Part shown: positions 3,927-62,761 of the stretch, in pieces
How positions within the stretch are numbered: the stretch's first letter is position 1
Layout of the letters: the number at the start of each line of letters is the position of its first letter
From: Chloroflexota bacterium
GTDB taxonomy: Bacteria; Chloroflexota; Anaerolineae; Anaerolineales; Villigracilaceae
Length of the DNA stretch: 64,000 nt
Reading direction: 5' to 3'
Assembly: GCA_029782225.1 (NCBI GenBank)
Contig: JAKOVF010000005.1
Location: 12,949 to 76,948, forward strand
Notes under the pieces: model-generated
What the model was told of the DNA's origin: nothing
Database searches by the model: none
What the model saw: the letters and a program-made list of their open reading frames with translations, nothing else
Made by a program: the position numbers and the translations under genes

Positions 3927-5816
3927 TTATCCGCTCTTTATCATTGTCTCTGCTGGAGATGTGTGGCTTAACCACATACCAAGCATAAACCCCAACATCA
4001 TATCCCCAGCTGACGCTCGAAGCTTGACTCCAGCACATAGATCTGCAATAAACTGCTTCCAAGCTGAGCGATAGGACTCTGAATCTATGCCGGCCTGATC
4101 CAAAGCATCATAGGCACGAACAAATGCAGTCCGATAATTTGGATCGTCAACGATATTGTTTTGCCAGCGAAGATTAAAACCCATTCCTTTCTTGCGAGCC
4201 CAGGCAATTTCCTTTCCGACCAGTTTTTCGTAGAAAAGTTTTGGTAGATACTTATTTGTTTTGGGCGAGAAAGGATCTGCCACCTTGTATTGGTGAGGCA
4301 GCCTGGCCGCGAACTCGATCAGACGGTAGTCAAGGTACGGACTGCGGACTTCCACCTGCGCAGCAAGCCCGGAGATATCAGGCAAACGGTAATTGCTGTC
4401 ACTCGTGGAACAAAGCAAGTTCAGATACATCAACCGATCCAGAAAATTATCCACCCCCGCCTCGGTAATATCCTTCATGATCCTGTCAACCATTGAGAGC
4501 ACCGCATTCCCAGTGGGTGTAGCTAATTCCCCGGGAGAGAGACGCGCGCTGAGATTGGAATAAACATAATTTCCCCACATTCCTGCGAGCGAATCTGCCT
4601 GTTTTTTTATTCCAAAATGGCGATGAAGAAACGGCAGACGTTGAAATCGTTCCAAGTCATCCTTGCGGGCTACCTCGTCCCCGATATAACCAGTAAAAAT
4701 TTCATCCGATCCATTGCCGCTTAAAACCACCTTTGCGAGTGGACGTATGGTCTCATAAAGCCGGTGTGAATAGACCAGCGGAAGCTGTACAGACGGCTGG
4801 TCATAAAATGAATAAGTACGCGGCAGGCCGCTGAGCAAGTCCTCATGGTAGTTAAATTGAATATATCGCCAGGTCAAACCCAGCTCACGCGCGACGCGTT
4901 CCGCAATCATTGTCTCAGGGCTGGGATCGTCATCCGTGTGATAGTCGATTGTGTAACAATCCAGAGAGACATTCAATCGTCGAGCACAGAGCGCAGCAAT
5001 TGTCCCGGAATCAACGCCGCCCGAAAAGGTGAGAGCAAGCGGCACGTCGGAACGCAGACGAATGGCAATGGCATCCGTCAACAGAGTTTCGTATTCTTCA
5101 AGCAACTGAGAAAGCGAGCGGCGGCTTTTCCTGCGGAGGTCCATCTGCCAGTAGCGGCCCACTTGCGGGACCGGATTCTCGGGACTGACCCAGGCAAAGA
5201 AAGCCGGTGGAAGCGCCCTCGCTTGCTCATACACGGTCAGCTCGAGAGGAAAGCCTGCGACCAGACGGTACAATTCGATCGCACCGATAGACAGTTTGCC
5301 GGTCCAACCCGGAATAGAGCGAAAGGCATCGAGCGTAGAGGCAAAATAAAAGTCACCGCCAATTTCGCACCAAACCAGCGGCTTCTTGCCAAGCCGGTCG
5401 CGCGCCAGAAACAGTCGCTTTTTCTGCGTATCCCAGATTGCAAAGGCAAACATGCCATTTAGATCCTCGCAGACATGTTCCCCTTTCAACTTGAACCCTT
5501 CCAGAATTGCCTCGGTATCGCTCTGAGTCTCGAACCGGGCACCCATCCGCTCGTAGGCGGTGCGTAATTCTTTGTAGTTATAGATTTCGCCGTTGTAGAT
5601 GATCACATATCGCTTGCTAACATCCCACATCGGCTGGTGACCGGTTGTCAGGTCAATAATGCTCAAGCGGGAATGGAAAAAATGAAGGTTTTTCTCATCG
5701 CTCCATTCATCCTGTTCATCGCGCCCGCGATAAAGGATGCTGGATCTCATGTACCGGGTTGTTGTCTCCGGGATTCGTCCAATATCAGTTGAGATGATGC
5801 CGGCAATTCCGCACAT
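3927..5816 (-). CDS. Asparagine synthase (glutamine-hydrolysing) family amidotransferase. In a glycan locus this is probably a uronic-acid amidating enzyme.
   Basis: An MCGIAGI N-terminal Ntn Cys2 nucleophile fixes the start at 5816. An SGGVDSG PP-loop ATP pyrophosphatase motif lies in the C-terminal half. Confidence 0.85.
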   Translation of the reverse strand: MCGIAGIISTDIGRIPETTTRYMRSSILYRGRDEQDEWSDEKNLHFFHSRLSIIDLTTGHQPMWDVSKRYVIIYNGEIYNYKELRTAYERMGARFETQSDTEAILEGFKLKGEHVCEDLNGMFAFAIWDTQKKRLFLARDRLGKKPLVWCEIGGDFYFASTLDAFRSIPGWTGKLSIGAIELYRLVAGFPLELTVYEQARALPPAFFAWVSPENPVPQVGRYWQMDLRRKSRRSLSQLLEEYETLLTDAIAIRLRSDVPLALTFSGGVDSGTIAALCARRLNVSLDCYTIDYHTDDDPSPETMIAERVARELGLTWRYIQFNYHEDLLSGLPRTYSFYDQPSVQLPLVYSHRLYETIRPLAKVVLSGNGSDEIFTGYIGDEVARKDDLERFQRLPFLHRHFGIKKQADSLAGMWGNYVYSNLSARLSPGELATPTGNAVLSMVDRIMKDITEAGVDNFLDRLMYLNLLCSTSDSNYRLPDISGLAAQVEVRSPYLDYRLIEFAARLPHQYKVADPFSPKTNKYLPKLFYEKLVGKEIAWARKKGMGFNLRWQNNIVDDPNYRTAFVRAYDALDQAGIDSESYRSAWKQFIADLCAGVKLRASAGDMMLGFMLGMWLSHTSPAETMIKSG

Positions 5817-8911: not shown

Positions 8912-8956
8912 GTTTTCCTTTGGAGAGGAATGAAGCAGAAGAGCAACGAGCATTCA

Positions 8957-8998
8957 GTTTTTGAATTCTCACATGAAAGGCAATCACTGTCAAGGGAT
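8957..8998 (-). promoter_or_regulatory. Conserved promoter/operator element, copy 1. Read on the minus strand it is ATCCCTTGACAG-N-TTCATGTGAGAATTCAAAAACTGAATG: TTGACA, a 17-bp spacer, then TGTGAGAAT.
   Basis: It aligns nearly base-for-base with 16047-16088. The -35 TTGACA and the extended -10-like TGTGAGAAT are 17 bp apart. It sits 46 bp upstream of the wzm start. Confidence 0.55.
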
Positions 8999-9185: not shown

Positions 9186-11665
9186 TGAAAACAGGAAATC
9201 ATTTCTTACTTGGCCGTGGCATTTTGGTGCTTGCACTTCTCAGCACGCTGCTCATGACCAACACGCAAAATGTACGTGCAGCCGCGCCATCCAATGACCT
9301 TTTTGATGGGGCAACGAACATCATCATCACCGGAAACTCCTTCACGGATGCGATTCAGGATGTTACCGGTACAGCAACTCCCAAGCCTGGTGATCCCCCC
9401 AATGGCGAGCCAGCCATTAGTTGCAATACGAATTATCCCGGGTTGTCAAGCCTTTGGTATCGCTATGATCCCAGCCAAAATGGCATGCTTAATGTGAGCA
9501 CAGTGGGCAGCAACTACGATACGGTAGTAGCCATCTGGCAGGGCACCACACTGGCCAACCTTGTTGCTGTTTCCTGCAATAATGACTATTATTCCCCCAT
9601 CAAGCAGTCTTTTGCCAGTGCATATGTGGAAGTGGGAAGTGCCTACTACGTTGAGGTCACTGCAGCAGGTGGGATCGGAGGAGCAGCTGCGCTAAGCGCA
9701 AACAAAGCCCAGCCTTTTGCGGTCACTGACGACTTGAGTCTCACTGTCACTTTCGATCCCGGAACCGCCGTGGGAGTGGGGGTCTATGATGACAGCCATG
9801 CAAATTGGACTTGGGGGGACGACGGAGGAGGATCGGGGGCCTGGACGCACGGTACGGGTATAACAGGTCCCTTCGCCAATACCCATACATACAGCAGCAC
9901 GGCTGGCGATACAACCAAATTCAACTTCGTCGGCGATCAATTCACCTTGTATTATACAAAAGCCAGCAATGGCGGCCACATGGAGGTTTGGATTGATAAT
10001 ATCAAAATTCAATTTGGAAACCAATTCTATCTGGACGAGAATTCTCCCACGACTCAATACCAGCAAACGTGGGCTAGTCCCACCTTGGATCCAGGCGGTC
10101 ACCAGGTATTGCTAAAAAATCTGACCGGTACCATTTATGTAGATGCGATCAAAGTAGCCTATCGAATTGCCCCGCTGGGGGATATCAGCACGGACTATAA
10201 TCCGACCTATCAATGGAATGAAGTCGCTGGCGCGACTTGGTATTATCTATGGGTAAATGGACCATCCGGCCCTGTCATCCAGAAGTGGTATCAGGCCTCG
10301 GCCATTTGCGGAGGAGGCCTTTGTTCCGTTAAGCCCAGCACCATTTTAGGCGGCGGGAATCATACCTGGTGGGTTCAGACTTGGAATAACGTAGGAACCG
10401 GTCCATGGAGTTCTGCAAAGTATTTCACTACAGCGATTCCGACCATTCCGGATCAAGCCACCTTATACTCGCCCATCGGAGATATCGGCACGAACTTCAC
10501 CCCGACTTTTGAATGGGAACAAGTCCCAGGCGCCACATGGTTTTATCTATGGATAAATGGCCCCACCGGAGTCGTGCTGAAGCAATGGTATCCAGTGTAT
10601 TCGGCCTGCAATGGTGGTACCTGTTCTGTTACGCCCAGCACTCCTCTGGCGGGAGGGGATTACACGTGGTGGATTCAGCCCTGGAACGCCGCAGGTACCG
10701 GACGTTGGAGCGCACCTATGACCTTCCATGCTGCCAGCTCAGCAGCGCCCGGTCAGGCTACTCTAACTGCGCCGACCGGAGATATCGGGCCGAACTATAA
10801 TCCCACCTATCAGTGGAATGAAGTGCTTGGGGCAACTTGGTATCGCTTATGGATTAATGGAGCAAGCGGACTAGTGCTCAACAAATGGTACCAGGCCTAT
10901 TCCATCTGCAACGCTGGAGTCTGCTCTGTCACATCGGCCGCCACTCTGGGCGGTGGAAATTATTCATGGGCGGTTCAAACCTGGAATGACGCCGGTACAG
11001 GTCCCTGGAGCATTACCGTGAATTTCATCACAGCCCCGCCGCTTCCCCCTGATAAAGCCATCCTTTATACGCCAGAGGGCGACATTGGCACGGAATATAA
11101 CCCCACGTATCAGTGGCAGGATTTCCCGGGTGCTACCTGGTACTATCTGTGGGTGAACGGATCCTCTGGGGCTGAAATCAAGCAATGGTATCAGGCCTCT
11201 TCCATCTGCACTGCAGGCACATGTTCTGTCAGGCCCAGCACCAGTTTGAGTGGTGGAAACCACACATGGTGGGTTCAAACCTGGAACTCGACAGGCCAGG
11301 GCCCATGGAGTGATCCTAAGATGTTCACAACCCCAGCCCTCACGGTTCCCGGTCAGGCCACTCTAACTGCGCCCACCGGAGATATCGGGGCAGAATACAA
11401 TCCCACCTACCAATGGAATGAAGTTTCAGGCGCGACCTGGTATTATCTATGGGTGAAGGGTCCCAGTGGACCGGTGATCCAGAAATGGTATCAAGCCATT
11501 TCTGTTTGCAGTGCCGGTGTCTGCTCTGTCACGCCCAGCACTACATTGGCTGGAGGAAGCTATCGCTGGTGGATCCAGGCATGGAACAGCGCAGGAAAAG
11601 GACTCTGGAGCGATCCTATGGATTTCACCGCCACCACGGCAACACCACCTCCTGGTGTTCCATAG
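9186..11665 (+). CDS. Secreted multi-domain protein: signal peptide, PPC (pre-peptidase C-terminal)-like domain, CBM6/35-like beta-sandwich, then 5x ~100-aa Cys-containing tandem repeats
   Basis: MKTGNHFLLGRGILVLALLSTLLMT signal peptide with GGAGGA RBS. LWYRYD...YYVEV matches the PPC pattern. The repeats share the consensus PTYQWNEVxGATWYYLWVNGxSGxVIxKWYQAxxICxxGxCSVxPSTxLxGGxHTWWVQTWNxxGTGPWS. Confidence 0.7.
10154..11653 (+). repeat. Five in-frame tandem repeats of exactly 300 bp. Unit starts are near 10171, 10471, 10771, 11071 and 11371, with about 70-85% nucleotide identity.
   Basis: Direct inspection shows ...GGAGATATCGG...AATCCCACCTATCA(A/G)TGGAATGAAGT...TGGTATTATCTATGGGT recurring with a 300-bp period and no indels. 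Confidence 0.85.
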
Positions 11666-16031: not shown

Positions 16032-16046
16032 AGGTTTGAGAATTCA

Positions 16047-16088
16047 ATTTTTGAATTCTGACATGGAAATTAAGCCCTGTCAAGGGAT
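16047..16088 (-). promoter_or_regulatory. Conserved promoter/operator element, copy 2 (minus strand: ATCCCTTGACAGGGCTTAATTTCCATGTCAGAATTCAAAAATTGAATTC). It contains the perfect palindrome GAATTCAA-TTT-TTGAATTC.
   Basis: Same layout as copy 1: TTGACA, a 17-bp spacer, TGTCAGAAT, then TTCAAAAANTGAAT. It lies 16 bp upstream of the regulator start codon. Confidence 0.55.
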
Positions 16089-18411: not shown

Positions 18412-20409
18412 TCAGTCCTGGAATGGATTTTTGCAATCGGGATTGGATGGCCGGGGGACAAAGACAACAATGTTGGTTGATACAAGAGTCTCAGAAGGTT
18501 TGTAGGCGCACAACAGCGGCGCACCGACATATTTTACCCAGGCCACATTTTCTTCCACAAACGCGCCTTCTTTTTGCGTTGTGAATTTCTGGTCTTCGGC
18601 AATGATAATGGCAAAGCGATGATTCTTGAGGTCAGCGTAATATTGCTCAAGATACGCACGATTGCCCGACATCGCCATTTCCATCAGCTCGATCTGTTCG
18701 TATTCAGAAACCAGCGGAACATTTTTGACCATATCAAACGTGAGCAGTTGACGCTCCGTGACAAACAAAACCTGGCCGTTGTTTGCAATCACATCAGATG
18801 TGACCTGCTGCAAGCGCTGGACATCTTTTTGTGCATTGACCGTATCATAGCGAGGCAAGAAGCCAATTTGCGGAAGAGCGAAACCCAGCGGGACAAGGAT
18901 GGCTGCTACCGTTACGGGCCAACTGACCTGCCCCCAGGCAGGTTCCGTTCCTTGCTCACCCGCAACAAGCCCGGCAATGATGGAAGTAGCGATCAAGGCA
19001 AGGAGGACGAGGAATGCATCCATGTTATGCAAATCACCGCCGCCGCCGATCTTCACGCTGACGACCATTCCACCGAGCAACAGGACGAGCAGCAGAGATA
19101 AAAGCGCCAGCCAGCGCAAGGGATGCAGAGATGCAAGCCTTCCGCGTATCATCTGATACAGGGCAAGGATAAGTGGCAAGGAAACGATCAATAATCCAAG
19201 CAAAACCCCGGGCGGGAAATTTTCGTTCGGCAGCAGACGATTCCACAACAAGTCGGATGTGAAGCTCGACCCGAAGCTTCGTACATCTGCGTCTCCAGAA
19301 ATGCTGATGTAGAGGAATTGCGACGCCAGGGCAGCCGCGATCCCGCTGACTCCCCAGATAAATGGAGTGATCCAGTAGTGCCATCCTTTTTGAGCGAGAG
19401 GCATTTCGAGCAGATAGATGGAAATCCCCAGCATTGCGGGAACGGGAAACCAGTTGACGCGGCTGATTCCTGCCCACAACGACGACAGGATTACGAAGAG
19501 CAAAGACCTGCCCGGGCGGCGGGCTGAGACGCCGACCAAAATCAGGATGACACAAACCTGAAGATGATAATAAACTGCGCCCTGCAGGAAATAAAGAAAC
19601 GCCCAGGCCGCAATAAATATTGACATCCACCCCTTCAACTGCAAGCGACGCGCCAGAAGAACAGAGGATGTGCCCGTCAAGGCAATCCACAACAAGGCCT
19701 GCCACATGCGGTGGAACCAGAGCGGCAGGCCTTTGATCAGAAAGGGAATGGACATCAACAGGTAACGCGAGGGGTGGAGAAACGGCAGTGCCAGATCTTC
19801 ATCATAGATAGACTTTGCAAAATAAAGGGAGGCGTAATAATGACGCGCCGCCTCGGAATAGCCTATCGAAAACGGGAAATCCGTGATGACGCTGAGATGT
19901 CCATAAATTTGATAAACCAATCCCTGCACGAGAATCGTCAGGGCAAAGAGCGCAGGCCAGCTTCGATCCGTTATCAGCTTGAGGCCCAGCGACTGGAGGA
20001 GACTCATCCAGAGAAACATCCACAAAATCGGGAAAATGCCCGGGAGGATATTTCCAAAAACAAACAGCCTTATGATCCAGACCAGCGCAAAGCCTAGAAC
20101 CAACAAGACAATGCCAAACCATCGAAAAGCCGATGACCTATTTTTGAATTCGATTTTTTCGATCCAGTGATTGCTATCATCGCGTGCGGGCCAGCGAAGG
20201 AGGAACAACCCTGCAAGGATGTTGAAGGCAAACAATAACAATACATACAGCCACTTTGAGCGCCAGAGAATGATCTCCAGCTTTGACGCCTGTTGAACGG
20301 TTCCATAAACAGCCAGCAGGCTGAGCAGGATACTCGCCCAGAGAAATGTCTGCCAAAATGTCCTGGAAGAGATGGATTTCATTCGCGTTATGGCTGTGAT
20401 GGCGGACAT
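18412..20409 (-). CDS. Large polytopic membrane protein (~13 TM plus a ~180-aa C-terminal soluble domain), putative GT-C-type glycosyltransferase; paralog A
   Basis: Multi-TM N-terminal ~480 aa with a DFPFSIGYSEAARHYY loop motif and a conserved GGGGDLHNMDA segment. About 40% identical to the adjacent paralog. Confidence 0.4.
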   Translation of the reverse strand: MSAITAITRMKSISSRTFWQTFLWASILLSLLAVYGTVQQASKLEIILWRSKWLYVLLLFAFNILAGLFLLRWPARDDSNHWIEKIEFKNRSSAFRWFGIVLLVLGFALVWIIRLFVFGNILPGIFPILWMFLWMSLLQSLGLKLITDRSWPALFALTILVQGLVYQIYGHLSVITDFPFSIGYSEAARHYYASLYFAKSIYDEDLALPFLHPSRYLLMSIPFLIKGLPLWFHRMWQALLWIALTGTSSVLLARRLQLKGWMSIFIAAWAFLYFLQGAVYYHLQVCVILILVGVSARRPGRSLLFVILSSLWAGISRVNWFPVPAMLGISIYLLEMPLAQKGWHYWITPFIWGVSGIAAALASQFLYISISGDADVRSFGSSFTSDLLWNRLLPNENFPPGVLLGLLIVSLPLILALYQMIRGRLASLHPLRWLALLSLLLVLLLGGMVVSVKIGGGGDLHNMDAFLVLLALIATSIIAGLVAGEQGTEPAWGQVSWPVTVAAILVPLGFALPQIGFLPRYDTVNAQKDVQRLQQVTSDVIANNGQVLFVTERQLLTFDMVKNVPLVSEYEQIELMEMAMSGNRAYLEQYYADLKNHRFAIIIAEDQKFTTQKEGAFVEENVAWVKYVGAPLLCAYKPSETLVSTNIVVFVPRPSNPDCKNPFQD

Positions 20410-22349
20410 TCGGGGACAGCCCGTGGTACAAACACTTGAATATTCGAGGAGTTCAACGTGAGCACTGGCTCGTACTCACACAGCAATTGATAGGCGACCA
20501 GCCGGTTCCAGGTCTCGCTTTCTTCTGCGAATTCGCCGCTCGTTGCATCCAGATTTTGTTTGCGCGCCACGATCGCTGCAAAGCGATGATTTTTCAGGTC
20601 GCTATAGAATCTGTCTAGATACGGACGATTCCCAGAAATAGCCATCTCAGTCAATGTGACCACTTCGTAATCCGGTACCACAGGTACATCGGGGATCATC
20701 TTGAAAGTCAGCAAGTGCCGTTCATAGATGAAAAGGACTGGGCCTTTGTTGTTGTAGGATTGCACCGTCTCTCGCAACTTGACCAGGTCCGCCGAGGCCT
20801 GCTTCCGGTCATATTGGATGGGAGGTAGGACTCGTGATAACGAAAACGCCACAGGAACTATCAGCATGATCATGATCAAAGATGAAGGCAGCGCTTTAAA
20901 CTCGAGCTTTCGGCCTATCTCCGCTACCACGCGTTGACTCATGAAGTAGGCAGTAATCAAGCCAACCAGGACGATGTAAGCATCCATATTATGCAGGTCG
21001 CCGCCGCCGCCGATCTTGGTGCTGACAACCAATCCACCCGCCAGAAGAATTACCAGCAATATAGCCAGCAAAAACCATCGCAAAAAATGAAGGGATTTCG
21101 TCTGTCCACGCAGAAGCCAGAAGAGGATGAGAATAAGAGGCAGAGACACCAACAGTATGCCTGGAATCACGCCCAGAGGATTTGTGGCATTGGGCCACCA
21201 ACGATACCACAGCAAGGCTGATGTAAAACTAGAACCGAACTGGGTTAAGTCCCGGTTCCCTGAAACAAAAATATAGAAAGCCTGTCCGGCAAAGGCAAGT
21301 AAGAGTCCGACCACACCATATAAGAACGGCCTGAAAAGATATCGCCAGTAATTCCCGTAGTTTGAAAAAGGCTCTTCGAGCAGGTAGATCGCGACGGCCA
21401 GCATAGCCGGGACAGGATACCAGTTCAAACGGCTCATCCCTGCCCAGAATGAAGCAATTCCCACTGCGAGCAGCGATTTCGTCAGGTCACGTGGTGTAAC
21501 CCAGGCAAGGACAATGATCACGCAGACCAGCAAGTGATAATAAACGGCGCCCTGAAACAGGAATAAAAAGAACCAGCTGCCAAAGATCAGTTTTGAATCC
21601 AGGCCTCCCCAGCGCAAGCGACGGACCAGTAGGAAAGCTGTCAGCCCGGTCAGGCCCAGCCATAGAAAGGCCTGCCATAGTCGCGAGATCCACAGCGAAG
21701 AATGACCCAACAAGAACGGGATGGACTGCAGGAAATAGCGTGTTCCATGCCAGACGGAGAGAGGCAGTCGCTCGCCGTTATAGAGCATCCTGCCAAACGG
21801 CAGAGATCCGTAATAATAACGGCTGGCCTCCGACCATCCAAGAGAGAACGGGTAGTCTGTCACAGGCTGGAGAACAAAATAGGATTGAAAAACAATCCCG
21901 TCGAGCAGGATTGTCAGAGCAAAAACTGTGGCCCAGGAAGAACGGGTCAACATCTTCAAGCCTGCTGATTGCAGAAGAGCCAGCCATAAGCAGACCCACA
22001 TGAGAGGGAAAAAGGACGGGACAGCTTTTCCGAAGAAAGCGAATTTCGCATACCAGAGCAGGGGAAATGCGCCAAATAAGAGCACGACCCCTGCAGTTTT
22101 CCAGATATTGTTAGGCGGAACAGATTCCAACCTTTCCCAGATCGGCTCACTCTTCTGGCCGCGCAAGAGCAAAATCGCACCCAGGGCAAGATTGACCGCA
22201 AAAACAGCGATGACTACCACCCATTTGTAGCGCGAGCGGATTTTCAAAAGCGCCTGAGTCTGCTGCTCTGTCTGGTAAATTGCAATGGCACTCAGGGCGA
22301 TCGAGAGCAACAGGAAGGTTTGCCAGAACCGACCGGGAGATGTCTTCAT
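20388..22349 (-). CDS. Large polytopic membrane protein, paralog B of 18412..20409 (tandem duplication)
   Basis: Same architecture and motifs (DYPFSLGWSEASRYYY, GGGGDLHNMDA, C-terminal SGNRPYLDRFYSDLKNHRFA). Nucleotide-level homology with paralog A is visible around 19015 versus 20980. Confidence 0.4.
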   Translation of the reverse strand: MKTSPGRFWQTFLLLSIALSAIAIYQTEQQTQALLKIRSRYKWVVVIAVFAVNLALGAILLLRGQKSEPIWERLESVPPNNIWKTAGVVLLFGAFPLLWYAKFAFFGKAVPSFFPLMWVCLWLALLQSAGLKMLTRSSWATVFALTILLDGIVFQSYFVLQPVTDYPFSLGWSEASRYYYGSLPFGRMLYNGERLPLSVWHGTRYFLQSIPFLLGHSSLWISRLWQAFLWLGLTGLTAFLLVRRLRWGGLDSKLIFGSWFFLFLFQGAVYYHLLVCVIIVLAWVTPRDLTKSLLAVGIASFWAGMSRLNWYPVPAMLAVAIYLLEEPFSNYGNYWRYLFRPFLYGVVGLLLAFAGQAFYIFVSGNRDLTQFGSSFTSALLWYRWWPNATNPLGVIPGILLVSLPLILILFWLLRGQTKSLHFLRWFLLAILLVILLAGGLVVSTKIGGGGDLHNMDAYIVLVGLITAYFMSQRVVAEIGRKLEFKALPSSLIMIMLIVPVAFSLSRVLPPIQYDRKQASADLVKLRETVQSYNNKGPVLFIYERHLLTFKMIPDVPVVPDYEVVTLTEMAISGNRPYLDRFYSDLKNHRFAAIVARKQNLDATSGEFAEESETWNRLVAYQLLCEYEPVLTLNSSNIQVFVPRAVPECPPSQP

Positions 22350-36320: not shown

Positions 36321-37643
36321 TTAAAGTCTCACAACCTTATCGCTATTCTTTCCGAGTTTTCCTGTTGCATTCCGTGAGTCAAAGACGAATTTCGCCGCGT
36401 CAATGATCGCCTTGTAATCGTAGACCGTGTGGTTGGTCACGATGACCACGGCATCTGCCTCCTTCACGGCCTGCATCATATCCTTGACCGAGTCCATGTG
36501 CCAGCCATCATATTCATGATGAATATGCGGGATGTAAGGATCATGATACTGTACCTTTGCGCCTTTTTTCTGTAGCAGGCCGATCACATCCAGCGACGGT
36601 GATTCGCGGACATCGTCAATATCGGGCTTGTAAGCCGCGCCGAGCACCAGGACCTTGCTCCCCTTGAGAATCTGGCCGCGGTCATTCATGGCATCCAACA
36701 TGCGGGTCACAACGTAACGCGGCATGTTCGTGTTGATCTCAGATGCCAGCTCGATGAAGCGCGCATTGTAATGGAAGGATTTCATCTTCCACGAAAGATA
36801 AAGCGGATCGATCGGGATGCAGTGTCCGCCCAGGCCAGGACCTGGTGTGAATTTCATGAAACCAAAGGGCTTCGTAGCCGCTGCATCGATCACCTCCCAT
36901 ACATCCACCCCGAGGCGTTCGCACATGATCGCCAATTCATTGACCAGACCGATGTTGATCATGCGGAAAGTGTTCTCCAACAGTTTGGACATCTCCGCTG
37001 CTTCTGCAGAAGAAACCGCATGGATATGCTGGATCGCGCCGGCATACCAGGCCGCGGCAACTTCGCTACAGCTTTCCGTAATGCCGCCCACAACCTTCGG
37101 AGTGTTAAGTGTGGTGAAATCCTCGCGCCCTGGATCGACGCGCTCGGGCGAGAATGCCAGGAACCAGTCCTCGCCCACGGTCAAACCATTGTCCGTGCCA
37201 AGTTTTGGAAGGAGCAGTTCCCGTGTCGTGCCTGGATAGGTGGTGGATTCAAGCACAACAACCATGCCCTTGTGCATGTACTTCGCCAACTCATCCATGG
37301 CAGAGATGATGAACGACATATCGGGATCGCCCGTTTGACGCAGCGGCGTCGGCACACAAATGCTGACCGCATCCATTTGCTTGAGCACCGAGAAATCAGT
37401 GGTCGCAGTCAAATGGCCGGATTGCACCAGCCTGGTGACTGCCTCAGTCTTCACGTCCGGGATATAGGATACGCAATTGTTCAGCGAATTGACCTTGCGC
37501 TCATCTGGATCCACGCCTGTAACGTGGAACCCCGCCTCCCCAAACACGACAGCCAATGGCAGACCAACGTACCCAAGTCCCAGAATGGCAATACTGGCTT
37601 TCTTTTCTTTCAGGTTACTGATGAGTGTTTCTTTCGTAGACAT
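36321..37643 (-). CDS. UDP-sugar 6-dehydrogenase family (WbpA/WecC-like). Start at MSTKE.
   Basis: IAILGLGYVGLPLAVVF NAD-binding motif and a catalytic Cys region GGHCIPID. The internal start is supported because a repeat-element copy occupies the upstream in-frame extension. Confidence 0.85.
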   Translation of the reverse strand: MSTKETLISNLKEKKASIAILGLGYVGLPLAVVFGEAGFHVTGVDPDERKVNSLNNCVSYIPDVKTEAVTRLVQSGHLTATTDFSVLKQMDAVSICVPTPLRQTGDPDMSFIISAMDELAKYMHKGMVVVLESTTYPGTTRELLLPKLGTDNGLTVGEDWFLAFSPERVDPGREDFTTLNTPKVVGGITESCSEVAAAWYAGAIQHIHAVSSAEAAEMSKLLENTFRMINIGLVNELAIMCERLGVDVWEVIDAAATKPFGFMKFTPGPGLGGHCIPIDPLYLSWKMKSFHYNARFIELASEINTNMPRYVVTRMLDAMNDRGQILKGSKVLVLGAAYKPDIDDVRESPSLDVIGLLQKKGAKVQYHDPYIPHIHHEYDGWHMDSVKDMMQAVKEADAVVIVTNHTVYDYKAIIDAAKFVFDSRNATGKLGKNSDKVVRL

Positions 37644-37649
37644 TTTTTC

Positions 37650-37795
37650 CTTTTTGATGTCATGGCGAGACGGTGCTTTCCCGAAGGGGTCCAAGCAATC
37701 CCCAATTTGGCAAGAGGGAGCTGCTCAGTGAGATCAGCCCACTTAGCGAGAGATTGCTTCGCACACGGTCCTGCGTTCGGTGCAGGGACGTGCGC
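37650..37795. repeat. MITE-like imperfect-palindromic repeat, copy R4
   Basis: Left arm tgtcatggcgagacggtgc...ccaagcaatcccc and right arm gagattgcttcgcac...gcgctcgcaatgacataattaac. These align with the copies at ~38455, ~50520 and ~61030. Confidence 0.6.
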
Positions 37796-37813
37796 TCGCA
37801 ATGACATAATTAA

Positions 37814-38452
37814 CTAGAACAAACTTAACTGCTTTGGCTCTTCCTTTGGTGTTTCTTCTATTTTCACGGCAGGCGCAGACCTGCCCATGCCGGTCCGTGC
37901 TTCCTTCAACAGTTCAGGCAGTTTCGCAAAATCACCCAAAATGGCCGGCTTGAGCGCAGCCTGGTGCAACGCGGCAGCCGGGTGGAACATGGGGATCACA
38001 TAGCGGTCGCCTACTTTTCGCATCTGCCCGTGCACTGCACTGATCTTTGCGCCGGGCAGAAACTTGTTCATCGAAAAGCGGCCCAGCGTCACAATGATAC
38101 TCGGATTAATGGCGTTTATCTGCGCTTCGAGATAAACATCACAGGCAGCAAGCTCTTCAGGCAATGGATCGCGATTGCCCGGCGGGCGGCACTTGACTAC
38201 GTTCCCGATCCAGACATCGGCGCGGGTTACACTGGCCTGTGCCAGTAATTGGTCAAGAAATTGCCCGGCTGCCCCTACAAACGGGCGTCCCTGTTCATTT
38301 TCGTGGAAACCCGGCCCTTCTCCAATAAACATGATCTCCGCATGGGTCGGACCCTCGCCCGGCACAGCTTTCTTCCGCGAGCGATGAAGCTCGCATTTGG
38401 TACAAACCGAGACATCCTTTGCAACCTGTGCCAGTACTTCCTCAGGGGTCAT
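37814..38452 (-). CDS. Uracil-DNA glycosylase, family 4
   Basis: CTKCELHRSRKKAVPGEGPTHAEIMFIGEGPGFHENEQGRPFVGAAG is the hallmark family-4 UDG motif region. Confidence 0.85.
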   Translation of the reverse strand: MTPEEVLAQVAKDVSVCTKCELHRSRKKAVPGEGPTHAEIMFIGEGPGFHENEQGRPFVGAAGQFLDQLLAQASVTRADVWIGNVVKCRPPGNRDPLPEELAACDVYLEAQINAINPSIIVTLGRFSMNKFLPGAKISAVHGQMRKVGDRYVIPMFHPAAALHQAALKPAILGDFAKLPELLKEARTGMGRSAPAVKIEETPKEEPKQLSLF

Positions 38453-38454
38453 AT

Positions 38455-38640
38455 CATACCTCCGTTTTCATCTGTCATTACCCCGCGTGCTTCCCCGCAC
38501 CATCCTTTGGTTGGCAGTGAAAGGCGGGGCTTTCAGCAGGGTTGCGAGGGCGTTAGCCAGAAGCATTCCCCCATGAAGGAGGAGATTGCTTTGTCGCGAA
38601 GAACGCTCCTTGCAATGACGTGAGCGTCATCAAAATCGCA
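38455..38640. repeat. MITE-like repeat, copy R1. Its right arm appears to overlap or extend the rimI 3' end.
   Basis: Left arm ...gggttgcgagggcgttagccagaagcattccc and right arm gagattgctttgtcgcgaagaacgctccttgcaatgacgtgagcgtcat, with an internal ccccgc/gcgggg hairpin insert. Confidence 0.55.
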
Positions 38641-49633: not shown

Positions 49634-50518
49634 CTACACACGTCTTACCAGCGCATCCGTCATCTTTGCCACGCGGGCGATTTGCACCACATCATGCACA
49701 CGGACAATGTCTGCGCCGCGGGCGATGCCGATGGCAATCGTGGCGGCTGTCCCTTCAACGCGTTGATCGGCAGGCAGGTCGAGCGTGAACCCGATAAAGG
49801 ACTTGCGCGAGGGCCCCAACAGAACTGGATATCCCAAAGCCCGGATTTCGTCTAAACGGTTGATCAGCTCGAGATTATGAGTTACCGTCTTGCCGAAGCC
49901 AATTCCGGGGTCCAGAATGATGCGGCCGTCAGGAATACCAACTTTATGTGCGATCGCGACACTGTCCATCAGCTCGCGCTTTACATCTTCGATTAGATTT
50001 TGATATTCAGAGCCGATGTAGGCATTCCCGAGTTTCTCGCGGACTTCCACACTGGCCGGGTTACTGCGATTGTGCATGAGGATTACAGGGACGCGATATT
50101 TTGCAGCAACCTTTCCAAGCTCAGGGTCCGCGCGCAAGGCCCAGACATCATTCAAGATCTGCGCGCCTGCCCTGAAAGCTTCCACTGCCACGCTGGCTTT
50201 ATAGGTATCAATGGAAATCAGTGCGTCGGGAAAATTCTGCTTGAGCGCCTGAACCACCGGGATGACGCGCTCCATCTCCTGCTCGGTCGTGACAGGCGCG
50301 GACCCCGGCCGAGTGGATTCGCCTCCCACGTCGAGAATGTGCGCGCCAGCATCGAGAAATTCCTTTGCCTGGGAAAGAGACACCTCAACGGCCGGTCCCT
50401 TTGCGATGATGCCATCTCCGCTGAAACTATCCGGCGTGACGTTGAGAATGCCCATCACATAGGTGCGGGAACCCCATTCAAAGGTGAAATTGCCAACCTG
50501 GAGGGAAGAGGATTTCAT
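49634..50518 (-). CDS. folP: Dihydropteroate synthase
   Basis: VMGILNVTPDSFSGDG N-terminal motif and the Pterin_bind pattern throughout. Confidence 0.9.
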   Translation of the reverse strand: MKSSSLQVGNFTFEWGSRTYVMGILNVTPDSFSGDGIIAKGPAVEVSLSQAKEFLDAGAHILDVGGESTRPGSAPVTTEQEMERVIPVVQALKQNFPDALISIDTYKASVAVEAFRAGAQILNDVWALRADPELGKVAAKYRVPVILMHNRSNPASVEVREKLGNAYIGSEYQNLIEDVKRELMDSVAIAHKVGIPDGRIILDPGIGFGKTVTHNLELINRLDEIRALGYPVLLGPSRKSFIGFTLDLPADQRVEGTAATIAIGIARGADIVRVHDVVQIARVAKMTDALVRRV

Positions 50519-50519
50519 G

Positions 50520-50640
50520 GAAGAGTATCGTCATTGCGAGCGAGTGCCAACAAGCGAAGCAATCCCCAAATCAACAAGACATTGCTTTGTCGTGCTACCG
50601 CATTCCTCGCAACCCCGCCGTAGGCAGGCGGGGCAATGAC
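50520..50640. repeat. MITE-like repeat, copy R2 (most complete: 11-bp terminal inverted repeats GTCATTGCGAG / CTCGCAATGAC)
   Basis: cgtcattgcgagcgagtgccaacaagcgaagcaatcccc ... gacattgctttgtcgtgctaccgcattcctcgcaa[ccccgccgtaggcaggcgggg]caatgacattaag. The arms are mutually complementary. Confidence 0.65.
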
Positions 50641-50641
50641 A

Positions 50642-51064
50642 TTAAGGGATCTGATCTAAGGGACGCCCAAGCCAGGCCTCTGCTTCATTGATATCAGTAA
50701 AAAGCTTCATTGCAGAGGCTGTTTCAGGCAAGGCCATCGCGGCCACGTTGCGAATCGCATTTGCCACCTGATTATCTGCGACGACAACCGCTACACGGAT
50801 ATGGCGCGCAGAGGGATCGCTATTCGCCTCCACAGCCATGCGGATCGCTTTTTCGGGAATTTCCTTCACCGCGCGTAAATCGTAGAGGTTGCGTGTTCGA
50901 CGGTCCACCCCCAGGAGGTGTTCGAGTGCGAAATCATGCCAGTGTTGAAGCGTCGCGTCAGAGAGGTCAGTGAACGTAAGGGTCATTCCGCCATCGCCGC
51001 GGCGTACAACGGTGTAGCCGATGCCAGGAGCGGGGCTAAAGTTCAGGGGTTTGGGTTGAGTCAT
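50642..51064 (-). CDS. Hypothetical protein (140 aa), possibly STAS/SpoIIAA-like
   Basis: Open frame with typical codon usage. No confident motif. Confidence 0.3.
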   Translation of the reverse strand: MTQPKPLNFSPAPGIGYTVVRRGDGGMTLTFTDLSDATLQHWHDFALEHLLGVDRRTRNLYDLRAVKEIPEKAIRMAVEANSDPSARHIRVAVVVADNQVANAIRNVAAMALPETASAMKLFTDINEAEAWLGRPLDQIP

Positions 51065-53592: not shown

Positions 53593-53742
53593 TGTCACTC
53601 TCCCAAAGGACACACCGTACTTGCGCTCGGTGCAAGTGTCGGGACGATGTGAGGGAGCGTATGCCGCGACCGAAGAGTCTGGTTCATCAGAGCAGAGATT
53701 CTTCGCTTCGCTCAGAATGACATACCAGTGCTCAGAGTGACA

Positions 53743-61020: not shown

Positions 61021-61029
61021 GATTCTCCT

Positions 61030-61185
61030 TATGTCGCACCTGCACTTGCATGCAGGTGCAAGTGTTGCGAGGGCGAAGCCCGAAGCAATCTCATGTTTAA
61101 TGCATACTTTATCAATGAATCTCTGCCATTTAACGGGAGATTGCCTCGTCGGGAAGAGTGTCCTCCTCGCAATGACATTAAACAG
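61030..61185. repeat. MITE-like repeat, copy R3 (with an extra CACCTGCA/TGCAGGTG hairpin and an AT-rich insert)
   Basis: Left arm tgttgcgagggcgaagcccgaagcaatctc and right arm gagattgcctcgtcgggaagagtgtcctcctcgcaatgacattaaac. Confidence 0.6.
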
Positions 61186-62589: not shown

Positions 62590-62660
62590 CTGTAGTTTTC
62601 GTCTGAGCGAAGTGCAACGAAGTCGAAGGCCACTGTTGGAGCCGTGCTTCGACTGCGCCT
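62590..62660. repeat. Degenerate fragment (R5) of the MITE-like repeat family in the divergent intergenic region upstream of the mutase
   Basis: gagcgaagtgcaacgaagtcgaagg is comparable to R2 gagcgagtgccaacaagcgaag, with a short cgaagtcgaag/cttcgact stem. Confidence 0.35.
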
Positions 62661-62761
62661 ACGCCTCCGCTCAGCGCGAAGTAAAGGGATTCACCCCATT
62701 GACTTCATGGGCCGGGCAGTATAATTAAACGGTACGTGATCTTCTGCCAAAGGAGAGGCGA

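Follow-up and report, generated by a model that had tools for sequence, protein, structure and literature searches.

Our analyses of a 64-kb stretch of an Anaerolineales (Chloroflexota) genome (64,000 nucleotides of contig JAKOVF010000005.1, hereafter the window) indicate that the four dispersed hairpin repeats that it contains are heads-out doublets of a unit that probably belongs to the CGTC superfamily and is cognate to one clade of Ssn-family GIY-YIG nucleases. They would be the gene-less relatives of a cassette in which two such units bracket an ssn gene. This kind of system is already known, from the CGTC-tagged repetitive extragenic palindromic (REP) sequences reported in 2013 and from Ssn and its Ssn-related motifs (SRM) reported in 2025. 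What is new here is the unit type ATTGCGAG..GAAGCAAT, its mismatch with the published SRM pattern, its tight pairing with a conserved Ssn clade in many phyla, and the presence of its doublets in Anaerolineales together with comparative evidence of their turnover. An earlier inspection of the window (the sequence-only reading) had proposed a dispersed family with nested inverted repeats, resembling REPs or miniature inverted-repeat transposable elements (MITEs). It was right in kind: the copies are inverted hairpin doublets, spread beyond this genome.

The unit (30–55 nt) is a two-tier hairpin of the form YGTC-ATTGC-GA-(variable apical mini-hairpin spacer)-GAA-GCAAT-C, where ATTGC and GCAAT pair in a 5-bp foot and GA/GAA make a purine-rich internal loop. 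Other unit types are ATTCTGAG and ATTCCCGCG, and the window units are of the ATGTCATTGCGAG type. A scan of 185,579 species-representative genomes with the pattern GTCATTGCGAG-N(4-34)-GAAGCAATC recovered at least 120 loci, and the unit is found in at least 12 phyla. Around 200 units from 120 genomes keep both boxes, with conservation reaching from position -1/-2 to +3 after GCAAT, an invariant GTC tag, and C (62%) or T (34%) at position -1. The commonest spacers are C-GNA-G triloops closed by GC pairs (CGAAGC, CGCAGC, CGTAGC, CGGAGC). Longer ones show compensatory changes (GAGC-GAA-GCGAC, GAAC-GAA-GTGAC, GGGC-GAA-GCCCC, CCGC-GCA-GCGGC), and among spacers of 14–20 nt 47% have a stem of 4 bp or more, versus 9% of shuffles. 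The unit also occurs singly and in tandem, and 85 of 105 adjacent unit pairs in the genome loci are heads-out, as are the window doublets. Among the matches listed, hosts include Bradyrhizobium, Sphingomonas, Micavibrio, Rickettsiales, gamma- and deltaproteobacteria and Helicobacter rodentium (grouped here as Proteobacteria); Pedobacter, Mucilaginibacter, Flavobacterium, Prevotellaceae and Ignavibacteriaceae (Bacteroidota/Ignavibacteria); Nostoc, Microcoleus and Melainabacteria (Cyanobacteria and kin); Chloroflexus, Anaerolineales and Thermoflexales (Chloroflexota); and Patescibacteria, Zixibacteria, Planctomycetota, Latescibacterota and Sporomusa.

The association with a nuclease gene was found by a motif scan guided by the literature. 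In a metagenome-assembled genome (MAG) of Planctomycetota (L068), an open reading frame (ORF) for a GIY-YIG protein of 96 aa lies between two inverted units. This protein has more than 8000 homologs and retains approximately 70% identity across Planctomycetota, Anaerolineales, Deltaproteobacteria and Marinimicrobia. We then selected 80 metagenomic loci solely by protein similarity (59–73% identity), representing a clade of ~95-aa GIY-YIG proteins. With a relaxed unit pattern, whose background is about 2 matches per 64 kb, a unit lay within 150 bp of the gene in all 80 loci and on both sides of it in 68; with the strict pattern, units were near the gene in 64 of 69 loci and on both sides in 43 of these 69. 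In the commonest layout, a unit(+) ends 0–50 nt before the start codon and a unit(-) begins 4–6 nt past the stop codon, so that the gene sits at the loop place of a heads-out doublet.

Several features connect this clade with SsnA. PF01541 is the sole Pfam match of the clade protein, which is single-domain, and its Y9, Y20 and E67 are spaced as Y6, Y17 and E64 of the gonococcal SsnA ortholog. The latter is an unannotated 94-aa ORF of Neisseria gonorrhoeae (NZ_CP119140.1, 1880778-1884044) with 16 NTS repeats within 1.5 kb; the record, 2.17 Mb long and chromosome-sized, is filed as a plasmid in PLSDB. The planctomycete protein aligns with this 94-aa ORF without gaps at 44% identity, and an Anaerolineales homolog (P0058) is 40% identical to it. 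By these sequence comparisons, the clade protein can be regarded as a true relative of SsnA. SsnA itself is a 94-aa single-domain GIY-YIG (cd10448) nuclease whose repeat, NTS, is CGTCATTCCCGCGMAVGCGGGAATCYRG (Chenal et al. 2025, Nat Commun, PMC11893778). It binds NTS as single-stranded DNA (ssDNA) only, cuts a few nucleotides upstream of it and is inactive on double-stranded DNA and RNA; the three bases (GTC) 5' of the palindrome govern cleavage and the C after the palindrome governs binding (PMC11893778). The same study found ssn genes across bacteria flanked by SRM and described the NTS-ssnA-NTS arrangement as insertion-sequence-like. Our unit resembles NTS and the SRM in its (C)GTC tag, its palindrome starting with AT, the C right after it (7 of the 8 window units have GCAAT-C, and the right unit of doublet C has G), its CYRG-like tail, and the bracketing of a ~95-aa single-domain GIY-YIG gene. 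It differs in its foot, which is ATTCCCGCG/CGCGGGAAT in NTS and ATTGC/GCAAT here, with a GA/GAA loop and an apical hairpin of variable length, in the usual layout unit(+)-gene-unit(-), and in hosts that include Chloroflexota, Planctomycetota and Patescibacteria.

The unit also fits the CGTC-tagged REP superfamily. According to Di Nocera et al. 2013 (PMC3733652), these REPs carry a CGTC or TGTC tag, AT at the first stem positions and short C-rich tails, usually occur just downstream of ORFs as dimers able to form a single large hairpin, and 'apparently lack a dedicated transposase'; dRS3 of Neisseria as well as RPE-4 and RPE-6 of Rickettsia are counted among them. Our unit shares the tag, the AT at stem positions 1–2, the C-rich tail, the predominance of dimers and the location downstream of unidirectional or convergent ORFs. 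With the CGTC-3 family it has GTCATTGC..GCAATC in common, as deduced from the encoded peptide VIAGLDPAIH of that family. By contrast, the families described in that paper have a perfect stem of 8–9 bp and a loop of 4–5 nt, which sets them apart from a unit whose 5-bp foot is topped by an internal loop and an upper hairpin; moreover, the paper reports no associated enzyme, whereas this unit type pairs with an Ssn clade. This unit type may still be one of the paper's four CGTC families. Like dRS3/NIME of Neisseria and RPE-4/RPE-6 of Rickettsia, which are other sequence families in other hosts, the elements of this superfamily studied here can sit in ORFs and add a peptide, as doublet B does to RimI.

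An architecture of tagged hairpin units in inverted, intergenic doublets is also that of classical REPINs, REP doublets mobilised by a REP-associated tyrosine transposase (RAYT; HUH/Y1, related to IS200/IS605), for which REP/RAYT is the textbook case (PMC3116915 and PMC6006769). REPIN-RAYT systems likewise combine a non-autonomous hairpin doublet with a gene flanked by the same units, a presumed recognition of ssDNA hairpins, long persistence and remodelling in situ; according to the RAREFAN preprint, they are mostly vertically inherited. We nevertheless consider it very improbable that the window copies are REPINs of this classical type. Their tag is YGTC, not GTAG or GTGG; the enzyme encoded by the flanked gene is a GIY-YIG nuclease in all 80 loci and not an HUH/Y1 protein; and the unit sequence is conserved across phyla, whereas REP sequences are described as species-specific (PMC6006769). 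Clustering of the ORFs around units in 120 loci returned generic families only and no recurrent neighbour such as a transposase (it was a clustering, with no explicit Y1 hidden Markov model search), and Di Nocera et al. (PMC3733652) found no tyrosine transposase flanked by CGTC repeats. The cognate of the IS200/IS605 or TnpB type suggested by the sequence-only reading finds no support, the gene that the units bracket elsewhere being an Ssn-family GIY-YIG gene.

Homology between a window doublet and ssn-flanking doublets can be followed within the Anaerolineales, the order in Chloroflexota to which the names of Udg homologs also assign the window. In one MAG of this order (L206, GCA_016928525.1), the ssn gene has doublets of ATGTCGTTGCGAGG..GAAGCAA units on either side, and doublet D of the window aligns over its full length with the ssn-flanking doublets of L141 and L206. 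The alignment takes in both the apical hairpin, GGAGGGTGCT..CCCGAC, and the loop rich in AT, TTAAATGG..GAT. The window doublets possess the ends of the cassette with just 15–51 nt between their two units, which makes them comparable to a REPIN with respect to its RAYT or to a MITE with respect to its insertion sequence.

Comparison with relatives, which the sequence-only reading had recommended, showed that the doublets are insertion-polymorphic (sites A, B and D). The gene order tsaE-tsaB-rimI-udg-ugd is kept in these genomes. Sites A and B are both empty in L204 (84% Udg identity), where rimI overlaps udg by ATGA and the spacer from udg to ugd measures 52 nt and contains no unit. In L202, L203 and L205 (87–90% identity), an orthologous doublet occupies site A; its box-proximal sequences agree with those of the window and its loops differ, and doublet A of the window has an additional hairpin nested in its apical loop. 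Site B is taken up in these genomes by other repeat families or a partial doublet. Site D in L331 (flanks with 79–88% nucleotide identity) carries a clean doublet with four intact boxes and no nested hairpin, and its hairpin tips, loop and junction distances differ from those in the window. No target-site duplications were observed at the window junctions compared with relatives at these three sites, and the flanks of 83 doublets showed complementary extensions and no direct duplications. These junctions bear on the possibility that the repeats are conventional MITEs, moved by a DDE transposase acting on terminal inverted repeats (TIRs) and generating target-site duplications. The outer 11 nt of the arms are indeed inverted repeats and an element length of 112–147 bp would suit a MITE. 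However, direct duplications are missing beside the doublets, the supposed TIR is one half of a self-folding unit that exists by itself, and no DDE transposase recurs among the ORFs clustered around units in the 120 loci, which leaves this explanation with hardly any credit.

The reality of the window copies is supported by their box counts and unit patterns. The 12-mer head GTCATTGCGAGG has 4 matches with at most one mismatch (0.57 expected in 64 kb), and the inner box GAAGCAATCYC has 11 at the same tolerance (3.5 expected). A whole-unit pattern requiring both boxes, with at most one mismatch in each, retrieved 5 units versus 0 in 20 dinucleotide shuffles, and a head-less pattern 7 versus 1.6 in dinucleotide shuffles; the eighth unit, on the right of doublet C, was identified by eye only. 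Single-box matches at 21451, 39102, 45633, 47732 and 63841 lie inside genes and were discarded as chance. The left arm of each doublet reads GTCATTGCGAG..GAAGCAATCYC and the right arm, complementary to it, GAGATTGCTTYG..CTCGCAATGAC, and these data bear out the four copies proposed from the sequence, at roughly the places and with the arms indicated. The perfect terminal repeats of 11 bp that had also been claimed are nowhere uninterrupted: doublet A has 10 of 11 positions, and in each of B, C and D a nested hairpin interrupts one of the two heads, giving 5 intact and 3 split heads among the 8 units. A MAFFT alignment of the four copies was uninformative because of these nested insertions, and the copies were aligned by hand instead.

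All four doublets (112–147 bp) occupy the gap between the stop codon of a minus-strand gene and the ribosome-binding site (RBS) of the next co-directional gene, the gene pairs being udg/ugd (A), rimI/udg (B), ORF140/folP (C) and ORF237/hom (D). Their description as 5' intergenic therefore stands as to intergenic and fails as to simply 5', since they fill the whole space from stop to RBS. Doublet A (37659-37805) separates udg (stop at 37814) from ugd (start at 37643) and consists of a unit(+) at 37659-37700 with a foot weakened to ATGGC, a loop at 37701-37751 and an intact unit(-) with a long apical hairpin at 37752-37805. Doublet B (38474-38619) is fused to the 3' end of rimI and stops 22 nt short of the udg start; its head GTCATT (38474-38479) is followed by a nested 62-nt hairpin (38480-38541), the remainder of the unit(+) (38542-38568), a loop (38569-38583) and an almost intact unit(-) (38584-38619). 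Doublet C (50529-50640), which separates a 140-aa ORF (stop at 50642) from folP (start at 50518), has an intact unit(+) with a CGTC tag (50529-50564), a loop (50565-50579) and a unit(-) (50580-50640), with a nested GC hairpin of 21 nt (50613-50633) splitting the head of the latter. Doublet D (61033-61176), which separates a 237-aa ORF (stop codon at 61178-61180) from hom (start at 61021), begins with the head GTC (61033-61035), a nested 29-nt hairpin (61036-61064) and the remainder of the unit(+) (61065-61090), continues with an AT-rich loop (61091-61138) and ends with an intact unit(-) (61139-61176). The ORF extensions that had been noticed are real, the rimI ORF running 22 codons into doublet B and the long ugd and hom ORFs beginning within A and D, and their use for picking the true starts (37643 for ugd, 61021 for hom) was sound. 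Metagenome peptides such as VIASEAKQS and DCFASLAMT are, we presume, products of this same repeat.

The position between cistrons implies that the doublets are probably transcribed as strong intercistronic RNA hairpins. In agreement with the folding transcript that the sequence-only reading had envisaged, the sense-strand RNA is predicted to fold strongly (-48 to -60 kcal/mol), and whole doublets fold far better than shuffles both as RNA (z -3.2 to -5.2) and as DNA (z -1.1 to -4.9). This opens the possibility that the doublets were selected first as RNA elements (mRNA stabilisers, decoupling signals or terminators), with any link at the DNA level being secondary. Their location between the stop codon and the RBS of co-directional genes, where transcription is almost certain, speaks for it, as do the effects of this sort generally known for E. 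coli REPs (cited in PMC3733652). Yet Rfam contains no family for the repeat (gathering and E-value modes), no U-tract follows the hairpins, and short sequence boxes are conserved rather than pairing. C-GNA-G triloops and G.A-rich stems are marks of stable ssDNA rather than RNA hairpins. SsnA, the one characterised Ssn enzyme, binds no RNA (PMC11893778), and an RNA function would leave the bracketing of a nuclease gene in many phyla unexplained. We therefore regard a primary RNA role as unlikely, and hairpin formation in the transcript as a plausible secondary effect of elements whose main partner would be an Ssn nuclease. Literature searches with sequence or peptide strings gave no relevant match.

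Several observations weigh against the interpretation of the window copies as gene-less relatives of the ssn cassette. A motif scan detected no ssn gene within the 64-kb window. The published SRM pattern HGTCWYN(0-2)YYVSBRHN(0-5)WNVSBRGN(0-2)RNCYNB, which NTS matches, has no match in the window and does not match canonical units with spacers of 6 nt or 12 nt. Single short units fold no better than shuffles under standard DNA parameters, which are blind to sheared G.A pairs and GNA triloops. The literature searched contains no binding or cutting assay for this unit type with its Ssn clade, and we found no joining activity, target-site duplication or excision footprint, Ssn being known as a nuclease only. 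Finally, heads are split in 3 of the 8 window units and the foot is weakened in 1 of the 8; a doublet probably offers Ssn no more than one good substrate.

If the interpretation as cassette relatives holds, the full form of the element would be unit(+)-ssn gene-unit(-). By analogy with SsnA of N. meningitidis, the unit would fold when the DNA becomes single-stranded and be bound by the Ssn homolog of the host, which would nick the DNA a few nucleotides 5' of the GTC tag; the window units are thus probably recognised as ssDNA hairpins. A heads-out doublet would offer exactly one recognisable unit per strand. More speculatively, nicks made by Ssn might drive the spread and replacement of units. 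In its boldest version, to which we give limited credence, the unit-ssn-unit cassette would be the autonomous member, and the gene-less doublets the non-autonomous one, of a new class of prokaryotic mobile element powered by a single-domain GIY-YIG ssDNA nuclease in place of a DDE, HUH or serine/tyrosine recombinase. Horizontal spread would have taken it into more than 12 phyla and onto viral contigs. Its MITE-like offspring would then include the copies in the window, and nested hairpins and swapped tips would be the traces of nick-initiated repair or templated replacement.

The nested mini-hairpins are themselves recurrent. Three of the four doublets carry one GC-rich mini-hairpin, in one unit each and always in the same place, after the GTC tag and before TTGCGAG (61036-61064 in D, 50613-50633 in C and 38480-38541 in B), and the insertion in C is bordered by a TTG duplication. 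The left head of D, GTC-[CACCTGCACTTGCATGCAGGTGCAAGTG]-TTGCGAG, reappears at the same position with 96% identity in L141 and is also present in L203, which suggests that variant heads are copied between loci; a sequence resembling the D insert lies at 53611-53640. Otherwise the left unit of D follows the unit plan (GA-GGGC-GAA-GCCC-GAA). The different internal GC hairpins that had been attributed to individual copies are thus of two kinds, since the long one of A is the variable apical hairpin proper to its right unit and the others are nested mini-hairpins that recur elsewhere. The insertions at this place could reflect a hot spot, the propagation of one variant head or selection that disfavours long perfect palindromes.

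Some ssn cassettes and unit-bearing contigs deserve description for their own sake. Two cassettes are located in defence loci: that of L206 (2501-2797) separates the hsdR and hsdM genes of a type I restriction system, and another in a Planktothrix plasmid (L330, 998-1282) lies between an MmeI-type restriction-modification gene and the DISARM gene drmA. The planctomycete cassette L068 is bordered by a 116-bp direct repeat of 99% identity (4877-4992 and 5436-5551); long direct repeats were considered as an insertion signature and dismissed, given that nothing comparable was found in other ssn loci, and the case of L068 is a one-off event or else results from misassembly. The unit is also carried by at least 120 viral contigs of IMG/VR (L209-L328). 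Among the matches listed for them, 125 of 221 units have no partner, 8 of the 20 contigs with at least 3 units have all of them on a single strand, and no ssn gene is found next to the units; some of the sequences may in fact come from prophages or from host genomes.

The window contains other repeats as well. Units of a sister type (GTCATTCTGAG-CGAAGC-GAAGAATC), absent from the sequence-only reading, are clustered between convergent genes at 53594-53741. The cluster comprises a degenerate partner that begins at 53594, 1 nt past a stop codon, an intact unit(-) TGTCATTCTGAGCGAAGCGAAGAATCTC at 53697-53722 and an extra orphan head GTCACTCTGAG at 53731-53741. The sister type GTCATTCTGAG..GAAGAATC also flanks a GIY-YIG gene in the Planktothrix agardhii plasmid NZ_LR882964.1, a third pairing of a repeat type with such a gene. 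The supposed degenerate fragment of the main family at 62590-62660 has neither box, and proved to be a palindromic doublet of another CGTC-tagged family (62600-62676), with CGTC-TGAGCG..GTCGAAGG, a loop and the inverse. This TGAGCG..GTCGAAG family has 2 unit matches in the window versus 0.09 expected, occupies the rimI-udg spacer in L202, L203 and L205, where it gives rimI its stop codon, and occurs in L039 (Tannerella) and L066 (Aquidulcis). Elsewhere in the window, five tandem copies of a 300-nt (100-codon) repeat with 62–70% identity at 10148-11638 presumably encode a repeated protein domain. A 51-nt direct repeat of 82% identity with a GAATTC-centred palindrome (8948-8998 and 16038-16088, 7 kb apart) may be a shared regulatory or promoter region, and a 118-nt direct repeat of 75% identity (18977-19094 and 20941-21058), accompanied by more collinear matches 1964–1970 nt apart, suggests adjacent paralogous genes.

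For genome annotation, the repeat accounts for very common spurious or extended ORFs, exemplified here by the 22-codon tail of RimI and the false N-termini of Ugd and Hom. The Anaerolineales are added to the hosts of the Ssn/hairpin-repeat system and, as the published SRM pattern misses this widespread unit type, counts that use the pattern exclude it. By analogy with SsnA, the clade may offer a new, defined recognition sequence for site-specific ssDNA nucleases of biotechnological interest. The pairing of protein and repeat, the ssn gene at the loop place of a doublet, and sites that are empty, filled or remodelled in related genomes provide material on whether Ssn mobilises repeats.

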